Part shown: piece by piece, positions 13,303 to 17,960 of the stretch
Numbering within the stretch: position 1 is the stretch's first letter
How the letters are laid out: every line of letters starts with the position of its first letter
Source: a virus
Direction: 5' to 3' (one strand)
IMG/VR virus record: IMGVR_UViG_3300003322_000730
Span: 1-64,000 of that record
Length of the DNA: 64,000 nt
Notes under the pieces: model-generated
The model's database searches: none
What the model was told of the DNA's origin: nothing
The model's input: the letters and a program-made list of their open reading frames with translations, nothing else
Translations under genes and position numbers: made by a program

Positions 13303-13393
13303 TGGTCACCAGAGAAAGAGTCGAACTTTCAATATCTATGCGTCCATAGAAACCGGATACTCTCCGGCGGGTCTACCATTCCCCTATCTGGTG
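13303..13393 (-). tRNA. tRNA-Leu-like (type II) RNA with a 5-nt anticodon loop; probably non-decoding
   Basis: Perfect 7-bp acceptor CACCAGA/TCTGGTG plus ACCA; D-arm GGG-GAATGGTAGA-CCC; stem CCGGA-GAGTA-TCCGG; variable arm TCTATG-GACG-CATAGA; T-arm GAAAG-TTCGACT-CTTTC. Confidence 0.85.
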
Positions 13394-15084: not shown

Positions 15085-15651
15085 TTAAGATAGTTGCGGA
15101 ATATTCACAATGTCCCATTCTATCATGTCTTCTACATCGTCGATGAAAATTTCGGCAGAAGAGAAAACCTCCGATACCTTGCGTTCGATACGTGAAATAC
15201 CCCAGTCGTCGAATAGATCGTTTCTCAATGCTTGTGCAAGAAAGTACCCCTTCAAAAGCGAAAGATCGTTAGAGATACGTATGGACGTGATTTCTTCCGG
15301 CAGGATGTTCCGGTATACACAAGATGCATGACCCATATTTTCATGGCTATCATCCATGCATACTTCGCTTTCGTCGATTGACACTTCAACAACAACCAGC
15401 CGGCAGTCTTTTGATGTTGCTGCGGCAAATTTAGCGGATTCGGATGCAAACCTGAAACCAATTTGTAAAACCTCATCCTGATTCAATTCGTCATCTTCGC
15501 GGCATTCGTATTCGACCAGTTTTTCGGAATCCCAAAGGTAAACAGCATCCCGTGAGCAGGACCAAACTTTAGTATCATCGCAGACTAATCCGTTTTCGAG
15601 AATGAAAGGAAGGTTATCGGCGCATGTTCCGTGGAAATATGTCTTTTTCAT
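15085..15651 (-). CDS. ADP-ribosyltransferase-fold protein (Tpt1/KptA C-domain or ARTD-like)
   Basis: YFHGT...ILENGL...AVYL...VVEV...NILPEEI pattern. Confidence 0.6.
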   Translation of the reverse strand: MKKTYFHGTCADNLPFILENGLVCDDTKVWSCSRDAVYLWDSEKLVEYECREDDELNQDEVLQIGFRFASESAKFAAATSKDCRLVVVEVSIDESEVCMDDSHENMGHASCVYRNILPEEITSIRISNDLSLLKGYFLAQALRNDLFDDWGISRIERKVSEVFSSAEIFIDDVEDMIEWDIVNIPQLS

Positions 15652-15688: not shown

Positions 15689-15740
15689 GAGCTTTGCCGG
15701 ATTCGATCCGTACTACCGGTAAAACCGTAGTGCAAAGCCC
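15689..15740 (-). ncRNA. minimal tRNA-like RNA (acceptor-like stem plus T-loop)
   Basis: 9-bp GGGCTTTGC/GCAAAGCTC, side hairpin ACTAC/GTAGT, T-arm CGG-ATCGAAT-CCG, 3' ACGA. Confidence 0.65.
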
Positions 15741-15753
15741 TGGTAAATGGCTG

Positions 15754-15924
15754 TTATGCGAGGTCAGGGTTTATTAAGGTGCCTTGTTCGGAATAGATAT
15801 CGTCCCCTTCATCTTCCAAGTAATCAATAGCCTCTTCATACGAGCACCCTACACATTCCATGTATTCATGTGCGGCTTTATCTTTGGCTTGTTCGGCAAG
15901 TTCTGTGAATTTGTAGCGTTTCAT
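15754..15924 (-). CDS. small acidic protein (56 aa, below ORF-track cutoff)
   Basis: MKRYKFTELAEQAKDKAAHEYMECVGCSYEEAIDYLEDEGDDIYSEQGTLINPDLA; A-rich leader. Confidence 0.7.
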   Translation of the reverse strand: MKRYKFTELAEQAKDKAAHEYMECVGCSYEEAIDYLEDEGDDIYSEQGTLINPDLA

Positions 15925-16038
15925 GTTGGTTTATGGGTTTATGGTTATTATATTTGCGTCACTCATTCTGCCACGATAGGAGAAAGGAGTTTCAAAGCCC
16001 GATGCATCAAGACATGTACCGGGCTTTGCGGTTTTAGA

Positions 16039-16092
16039 AACTGTTTCAACCTTTCGGCCATCATCAGATAGGGCACACACCCTATTACAGTT
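16039..16092 (-). ncRNA. type III hammerhead ribozyme
   Basis: Minus strand AACTG-TA^ATAGGG-TGTGTG-CCCTAT-CTGATGA-T-GGCC-GAAA-GGTT-GAAA-CAGTT: full CUGAUGA/GAAA/UH core and three stems; predicted cut between 16086 and 16085. Confidence 0.9.
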
Positions 16093-16250
16093 CGCGTAAT
16101 GTTGCTATGAAACACACAGGCCGGAGAATAACCGTAGCCTATCGTTGCCTTACGCGGGTGTCCCTCACCTAGCGGCCAGCGGGATTCCGGTACCGCTGAT
16201 TATCCGTCTTACTCTGTAAAGCCGAGTGATAAAGCTATCAAAGACGTGGC
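16093..16250 (-). ncRNA. structured intergenic RNA 5' of the hammerhead
   Basis: Three-way junction CGTCTT/AAGACG with TGATA/TATCA; hairpin CAGCGG/CCGCTG; long stem CGCGTAA/TTACGCG. Confidence 0.55.
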
Positions 16251-16469
16251 TTACTCTACTTTTTGCGACATTGCGATTGTAGTTGCAATATGCTCAACTG
16301 TCAACGTTTGTCCCATGAATTGGTGAGTGGCAAGATAAGTGATCTTAACAACCTCACCCTGGCTATTGGTAGTGGTCAGAATATCCACGATAGTTTCAAC
16401 ATCCCTGCGGATCTTTTTGCCGCGCGTCTGAATGAACTGATAGCCGATAGGGAATTGAGGTGTTTTCAT
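16251..16469 (-). CDS. hypothetical protein
   Basis: Start re-called at ATG 16469 (MKTPQFPIG). Confidence 0.7.
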   Translation of the reverse strand: MKTPQFPIGYQFIQTRGKKIRRDVETIVDILTTTNSQGEVVKITYLATHQFMGQTLTVEHIATTIAMSQKVE

Positions 16470-16587
16470 AATTGAAAGTAGAGTTAAGTACTTGATTCTC
16501 AAAAAGCTGATACGTTGCTGCATATGTGCGGTGCGCTCTCTGTATCACTGCCGGATCTTTTCATTTCCGTTTGTCTTTCTGATGATG

Positions 16588-16629
16588 TAAAGATAGGCAA
16601 AAACTTTAATATACAAAAACTTTTACCTA
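16588..16629 (-). promoter_or_regulatory. early promoter with overlapping inverted repeat
   Basis: TTTG-N18-TATCTTTA; homologous to the promoter at 18012-18054. Confidence 0.7.
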
Positions 16630-17666: not shown

Positions 17667-17960
17667 CTATATCTTGGTAAAGCCTCCAGAATAAGGACCG
17701 CGTCCATCCCACTTCTTACCGTTGAGATACCAATCACCTTTGACTTGCTGGATATACACCCCAGGAATGCCATTTAAACGCTCTTTGGTAGTATCAGAGA
17801 ACCAACCGGCATTAGAGATAAAGATATCGCTACCCTCACGGTAAGCAATCAGATTTCCATGCAAATACAAGCCTGATCCATCAGAAGATGTATTGCCCAT
17901 AGTAAGTTTTTGACCAGTTAAGAAGGCTGAAACAGTTGCGGTAGTTACTTTACGTGCCAT
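17667..17960 (-). CDS. conserved phage early protein
   Basis: LYLHGNLIA...AGWFSDTTKERLNG motif; first gene after the leftward promoter. Confidence 0.8.
   Translation of the reverse strand: MARKVTTATVSAFLTGQKLTMGNTSSDGSGLYLHGNLIAYREGSDIFISNAGWFSDTTKERLNGIPGVYIQQVKGDWYLNGKKWDGRGPYSGGFTKI

Follow-up and report, generated by a model that had tools for sequence, protein, structure and literature searches.

The stretch of viral DNA analysed here, a window of 64,000 nucleotides from a complete 77,099-bp genome in IMG/VR, harbours a type III hammerhead motif of 54 nt on its minus strand (16092 to 16039), which is the coding strand at this position. We consider it probable that the motif is a genuine cis-acting ribozyme, a member of a large family from uncultured DNA phages, that cuts a leftward polycistronic mRNA. 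The motif lies between two genes, its parts are those of a type III hammerhead throughout, and it belongs to a set of viral sequences whose stems covary. We infer in addition that the ribozyme is transcribed, that it cleaves and that it affects the stability or the translation of the message.

Read as RNA, the site is AACUGU-A-AUAGGG-UGUGUG-CCCUAU-CUGAUGA-U-GGCC-GAAA-GGUU-GAAA-CAGUU, and its limits are exactly those drawn by the first-pass annotation. Direct reading of the sequence gives a full core (C3 U4 G5 A6 U7 G8 A9, G12 A13 A14, A15.1-U16.1, and A as H17), and the topology is that of type III, open at stem III with loops closing stems I and II. In isolation the 54-mer has the hammerhead structure as its minimum-energy fold (-14.7 kcal/mol, z -2.3). 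Stem III comprises 6 bp, or 7 with a possible extra G.U pair (16093/16038). The first-pass annotation had described an intact type III hammerhead with all core nucleotides and a GUA triplet, and the sequence, the minimum-energy fold and the covariance model introduced below all agree with it. The 6-bp stem I, the GAAA-capped stem II and the stem III that it listed can likewise be read from the sequence; what it left unmentioned is that stem II is asymmetric, with 5 nt in the 5′ strand (UGGCC) against 4 nt in the 3′ strand (GGUU). This stem can be read in two ways, either as an extra U after A9 followed by G.U, G.U, C-G and C-G, or as a U10.1.U11.1 mismatch followed by G.U, a bulged G, C-G and C-G. 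The quasi-conserved G10.1-C11.1 pair is missing under both readings.

The scissile bond is predicted to lie between 16086 and 16085, after the triplet GUA. Hammerhead chemistry leaves a 2′,3′-cyclic phosphate on the upstream product and a 5′-OH on the downstream product, which would here begin at 16085; the new 5′-OH end had been placed at this very nucleotide beforehand, and the alignment to the family is consistent with it. The loops of the window copy, UGUGUG and GAAA, were also thought to fit the loop–loop contact of fast natural hammerheads, and they do satisfy the docking motifs defined for these ribozymes, UNmYN in loop 1 and RNnA/GNRA in loop 2 (Dufour et al. 2009, PMC2632901). The parts of the ribozyme and its immediate surroundings are listed in Table 1.

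Table 1 The hammerhead ribozyme and neighbouring features, in the order of the minus-strand RNA (window coordinates)
Feature	Position	Strand	Basis or remark
Upstream gene, 90-aa ORF (likely true start gives 72 aa)	16251..16523	minus	phrog_28041; homologues P0002-P0005
Stem III, 5′ strand, AACUGU	16087..16092	minus	U16.1 = 16087; sequence, fold, family covariation
A17, nucleotide of the predicted cleavage site	16086	minus	Position from alignment to family
Stem I hairpin, AUAGGG / UGUGUG loop / CCCUAU	16068..16085	minus	Six Watson–Crick pairs
Core CUGAUGA (C3-A9)	16061..16067	minus	Invariant in alignment A2, whose collecting pattern itself demanded this core
Stem II hairpin, U GGCC GAAA GGUU	16048..16060	minus	Sequence
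Core G12 A13 A14	16045..16047	minus	Invariant in alignment A2
Stem III, 3′ strand, ACAGUU	16039..16044	minus	A15.1 = 16044; sequence, family covariation
Strong hairpin, 11 + 3 bp, 36 nt	15993..16028	minus	Fold of 16092..15925, z -3.06
Next downstream ORF, 56 aa	15754..15924	minus	Weak PHROG matches only

A hammerhead descriptor of our own (CUGANGA, GAAA, U16.1, H17 and three stems, with an optional one-nucleotide insertion) matches the window exactly once, at this site. When the window was shuffled 400 times with its dinucleotides preserved, loose matches came to 0.005 per shuffle, and no match equalled the real site. Since chance could still supply a few matches of such quality in a scan of a quarter of a million windows, the comparative evidence is decisive.

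For this comparison IMG/VR was searched in two steps. The first pattern, CUGAUGAU-N4-GAAA-N4-GAAAC, retrieved one true hammerhead, in the locus L020, with an extra U after A9 and with stems that differ from those of the window by compensatory changes; the exact core and stem II string of the window has no second copy in IMG/VR. With the second pattern, which specified the core, GAAA, loop II and a UGNGUG loop I and put no constraint on any stem, 67 loci were found against about 0.5 expected by chance, and 68 of the 69 sites are perfect type III hammerheads. Removal of duplicates left 44 distinct sequences, namely that of the window and 43 others.

Across the stems of these 44 sequences 91.8% of the cells are paired (55.5% in shuffles), with a covariation score of 0.967 (0.227 when shuffled) that none of 500 shuffles reaches. 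Both sides have changed in 14 of the 16 family pairs. Pairing is complete (100%) in stem I, where each position shows between two and six pair types, and the columns of stem III covary, its inner four pairs being 100% paired; when the register of the structure is slid, pairing always falls to 34-46%. A covariance model (R2, from alignment A3) was built from the 43 other viral hammerheads with the window sequence excluded. It scores the window site at 63.8 bits (E about 2e-20), whereas the next best site in the window reaches 10.8 bits. Because a model built without it recovers the window site at this score, membership of the window ribozyme in a viral type III family with a UGNGUG loop and a GAAA loop is established. 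Family members score about 62-75 bits, which places the window copy near the low end. In the energy of the hammerhead fold the window copy ranks 21 of 44, right at the family median, and thus it does not look decayed. A single extra nucleotide in stem II is seen in L070 and, twice, in L020 as well; the exact form found in the window is unique among the 44.

The same lineage is poorly served by Rfam. Searches with its models reported no hammerhead at the gathering threshold in the window, at E<=10 in segments of 1.2 kb and 91 nt, or at E<=1 in the whole window, and at E<=1 other ribozyme families were absent too; RF00008 (clan CL00010, gathering threshold 48.5 bits) found no match anywhere in the 77-kb virus record. 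In Rfam, the members of the family that have C17 or U17 obtain only 31.9-44.5 bits, under the threshold, and those that combine A17 with a U.U mismatch are not reported by RF00008 at E<=1. Since clear relatives also score below threshold or go unreported, the Rfam miss of the window ribozyme is a false negative that reflects a blind spot of the model for this lineage.

Applied to the 66 IMG/VR loci that were fetched, R2 found 119 hammerheads. Just over half of the loci (34 of 66) carry between two and five copies, all in one orientation within a locus, and the family sites are all intergenic and on the coding strand. Their spacing is regular: the distance from the 3′ end of the ribozyme to the next ORF of at least 50 codons has a median of 24 nt and lies between 15 and 40 nt in 55 of 65 sites. 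A constant gene downstream of the family ribozymes was considered and rejected, the products being diverse (among them a phrog_1297 ATPase, a porphyrin/AAA-like protein and unknowns). In L020 (5672-6836, minus strand) two type III hammerheads flank a 332-aa ORF, each 24 nt before a start codon, and the second of them has an unambiguous extra U after A9 beside a canonical stem II. Synteny between the window and L020 was also rejected, the match being confined to the 45-nt ribozyme. In L088, at 2086-2170 and about 1 kb from a family hammerhead, the RAGATH-1 hammerhead model matches with 30 bits, below its threshold of 56.3. The only gene common to the window and the family loci encodes a Kyano_Gp96-like small protein (PF23790, phrog_554; 17667-17960 on the minus strand of the window), whose homologues in L055, L057 and L095 are 50-55% identical, each 0.6-2.5 kb from family hammerheads.

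The hammerhead of the window is solitary in the 77,099-bp genome. It is flanked by minus-strand ORFs, and this orientation holds throughout the left arm (1 to about 18000); the first-pass annotation had put the motif on the coding strand between two ORFs, a placement that stands and that gains from the real homologues of the upstream ORF. That ORF ends 158 nt before the ribozyme, and the start codon of the 56-aa ORF follows 113-114 nt after the ribozyme 3′ end. The closest relatives of the 90-aa protein are P0002 (77% identity) and P0003 (75%). Its homologues in L002-L010, from IMG/VR, metagenomes and genomes, are only distantly related; what follows the gene differs there, and no hammerhead is present. 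Nucleotide searches with 15700-16600 (blastn) gave no match in the cultured-phage collection, and protein searches of IMG/VR with the terminase and with a 188-aa protein encoded downstream of the ribozyme (15085-15651, minus strand) returned nothing. The 188-aa protein has no Pfam or PDB sequence match; a protein atlas gave weak leads to ADP-ribosyltransferase folds (DarT/PARP, Arr) and to DUF6912. Further along the left arm, ARAGORN calls a 91-nt tRNA-Thr (agt) at 13303-13393 on the minus strand, and the Rfam tRNA model has no match at E<=1 window-wide; the call is therefore read as an atypical tRNA-like gene.

The genome either derives from a root metagenome or is also present in one. A sequencing-run lookup returned one DNA run, from a root metagenome, and no RNA runs with the phage, and an independent Logan assembly of the root metagenome contains an identical contig with no variants. 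Shine-Dalgarno sites are few (10 of 75 genes), and their rarity hints at a Bacteroidota-like host.

Between the ribozyme and the 56-aa ORF lies the strong hairpin of Table 1, separated from the former by 10 nt and from the latter by 68 nt of A-rich leader. It has no U-run and no T-run terminator was called there, and no homologue of it was found in the other loci; it could serve as a 5′ stabiliser or insulator hairpin, or as a terminator that lacks the U-run. An ATG at 16013-16015 (minus strand) lies 23 nt past the ribozyme 3′ end, the distance typical of the family, and opens a frame of two codons inside the hairpin loop. It could be there by chance or could be the remnant of a lost gene start. 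Two sigma-70-like matches were noted on the minus strand, TTGACA-17-TACAAT at 16304-16276 (11/12), within the terminal part of the upstream gene, and GTGGCA-16-TATAAT at 15974-15947 (10/12), just before the 56-aa ORF. Both are doubtful because promoter-like sites are not above the shuffled level (4 found, 7.0 expected) and because the genome is poor in Shine-Dalgarno sites. A structured RNA in the 158 nt upstream of the ribozyme is not supported (fold z +0.17, no Rfam match beyond noise, no homologue in the fetched loci). A ribozyme regulated by pairing of the flanks with the core was rejected, since shuffled flanks form duplexes of equal or better energy (z +0.45 and -0.2).

On the reading that we prefer, a leftward (minus-strand) polycistronic transcript would be made, in which the 54-nt motif would fold into a three-way junction and loop I (UGUGUG) would dock on loop II (GAAA). 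The RNA would then cut itself after A17, probably co-transcriptionally. The upstream message, comprising the 72/90-aa gene and the 158 nt behind it, would end in a 2′,3′-cyclic phosphate, and the downstream message, with the 56-aa ORF, the 188-aa ART-like gene and what follows, would start with a 5′-OH, the folded ribozyme body and the strong hairpin. By analogy, the outcome would resemble that of RiboJ, a defined and structured 5′ end that is independent of the upstream sequence and that probably stabilises the message. A 5′-OH end is a poor substrate for 5′-monophosphate-dependent RNases. Counting against this reading are the lack of G10.1-C11.1, the extra nucleotide in stem II, the solitary copy, the spacing of 113 nt instead of about 24 nt and the silence of Rfam.

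The first of these features recurs within the family, where it goes with the identity of the nucleotide at position 17. Among the 44 distinct sequences, C17 accompanies the canonical G10.1-C11.1 pair in 18 of 19, A17 accompanies U10.1.U11.1 in 22 of 22, and U17 accompanies U.U in both of two; A17 itself is found in 23 of the 44. The window copy, with A17 and a U on each side of helix II, obeys the A17 rule if it is read as U.U with a bulged G. A U.U mismatch at 10.1/11.1 is present in 25 of the other 43 family sequences, and the G10.1-C11.1 pair is therefore not required in this lineage. G10.1 together with the A9 phosphate is the best-known metal site of the hammerhead. We suggest, tentatively and as a possibility only, that the window copy belongs to a perhaps undescribed subclass of type III phage hammerheads, undetected by Rfam, in which A17 always occurs with U10.1.U11.1 in place of G10.1-C11.1. 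The A17/U.U sample was collected by a pattern that fixed both loops, and functional coupling and descent in two clades are for that reason confounded in it. No description of the subclass was found in the literature searched, a body that leaves key older papers outside, and strings from the family have no match in the supplement files of Perreault et al. that were searched. If the coupling is functional and not mere shared ancestry, these would be ribozymes working without the classical A9/G10.1 metal site, and with the spacing of about 24 nt to the start codon they would be natural RiboJ-like leader elements with an altered chemistry of the catalytic site. For ribozyme chemists, this association of A17 with U10.1.U11.1 is of interest as a naturally occurring change at the metal-binding corner of the core.

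An alternative that we hold to be unlikely, yet more serious than the others, is that the window ribozyme is a true family member that has become a weak or inactive relic, the gene that it once preceded having been lost or replaced, and that it has no role now. A single copy in 77 kb, as against two to five in half of the related loci, would suit a relic, as would the distance of 113 nt to the next ORF against the family median of 24 and the family-placed ATG that opens just two codons. The extra nucleotide and the two G.U pairs of stem II and the family-model score of 63.8 bits, near the low end, point the same way. A relic should, however, be reconciled with core positions and stem pairs that are all unbroken, with a fold energy at the family median and with the recurrence of helix II variants with one extra nucleotide in three other members. 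An extra U after A9 reportedly even raises the cleavage rate.

Considerably less probable is an action on the upstream RNA, with the hairpin at 16028-15993 ending the transcription unit. In one version cleavage would strip a protective 3′ hairpin and shorten the life of the upstream message; in another it would set the exact 3′ end, a cyclic phosphate, of an RNA of about 180 nt made from the promoter-like match at 16304-16276. The strong hairpin directly 3′ of the ribozyme, the two promoter-like matches (11/12 and 10/12) and the untranslated stretch of 158 nt ahead of the ribozyme are what such an action would call for. Yet the hairpin is without a U-run, promoter-like sites are no commoner than in shuffles, and the host, to judge by the scarcity of Shine-Dalgarno sites, may be Bacteroidota-like and use different promoters. 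The upstream 158 nt, moreover, have neither a fold signal nor a homologue, and the constant neighbour of the family ribozymes is a downstream start codon.

A chance look-alike unrelated to hammerheads, for which the silence of Rfam at any threshold and the few chance matches expected in a very large scan might be cited, is in effect refuted by the family model and the covariation: none of the 400 shuffles equals the real site, a model that excludes the window gives the site 63.8 bits (E about 2e-20), at least 43 covarying sequences share its loops and helix lengths, on which the core definition places no demand, and Rfam also misses clear relatives or scores them below threshold.

Taken as a genuine cis-acting ribozyme, the window copy adds one phage hammerhead to a class known since 2010-2011. 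The wider yield is that of the family: with 119 copies found in 66 loci, it escapes the Rfam type III model or falls below its threshold, which makes it probable that ribozyme annotation in phages is incomplete. The fixed distance before start codons in the family supports a role as leader or insulator.

The intergenic arrangement itself is well known and common among phage hammerheads (Perreault et al. 2011, PMC3088659). Those authors described clusters of intergenic hammerheads in prophages and phages, among small genes of unknown and non-constant identity, showed cleavage of polycistronic RNA in vitro and in E. coli, and proposed that long phage transcripts are thereby cut into gene-length messages (Perreault et al. 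2011, PMC3088659). The window ribozyme is like theirs in being a cis hammerhead, in its coding strand and in its position in an intergenic gap of a phage operon. The IMG/VR relatives are clustered likewise, with at least two copies at 34 of 66 loci, whereas the phage of the window has one copy. The window ribozyme further differs in being of type III, the bacterial and phage examples described being mostly of type I or II. Matches with a mispair at N10.1-N11.1 were rejected in that study unless tested (Perreault et al. 2011, PMC3088659), and it is a mispair of this kind that the window copy and its A17 relatives carry.

A close comparison is also offered by the sTRSV(+) hammerhead, the prototype of RF00008. 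Both are of type III, and both have a 6-bp stem I closed by a loop that begins with U (UGUGCUU in sTRSV) and a four-pair stem II capped by a GNRA loop (GUGA in sTRSV), with the docking motif in common (PMC2632901). The two part company in their setting, phage DNA as opposed to a circular satellite RNA, and in the cleavage triplet, GUA as opposed to GUC. The window copy, unlike sTRSV(+), lacks G10.1-C11.1, has one extra nucleotide in stem II and goes unreported by RF00008.

A nucleotide inserted behind A9 has precedents: it is reportedly an A (A10) in CChMVd and a U in two natural hammerheads. The CChMVd(+) hammerhead, with its extra nucleotide between A9 and G10.1 as given in the source cited in PMC6155905 (De la Pena & Flores 2001, ref. 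28 there), fits one of the two readings of stem II in the window. For the second hammerhead of L020 an extra nucleotide right after A9 of the CChMVd(+) kind is the only possible reading; for the window copy, by contrast, the alternative of U10.1.U11.1 with a bulged G suits the family rule better.

With regard to the order of parts, the nearest counterpart is RiboJ, an engineered element that joins the sTRSV hammerhead to a 23-nt hairpin and that in E. coli raises transcripts about twofold and protein two- to tenfold (PMC6206723). Cleavage of RiboJ leaves a standard structured 5′ end, and its hairpin adjoins the ribosome-binding site; in the window the hairpin is longer (36 nt) and is separated from the gene by 68 nt of A-rich leader. 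The order of parts in RiboJ and in the window is nonetheless identical, from type III hammerhead to hairpin to leader to gene.
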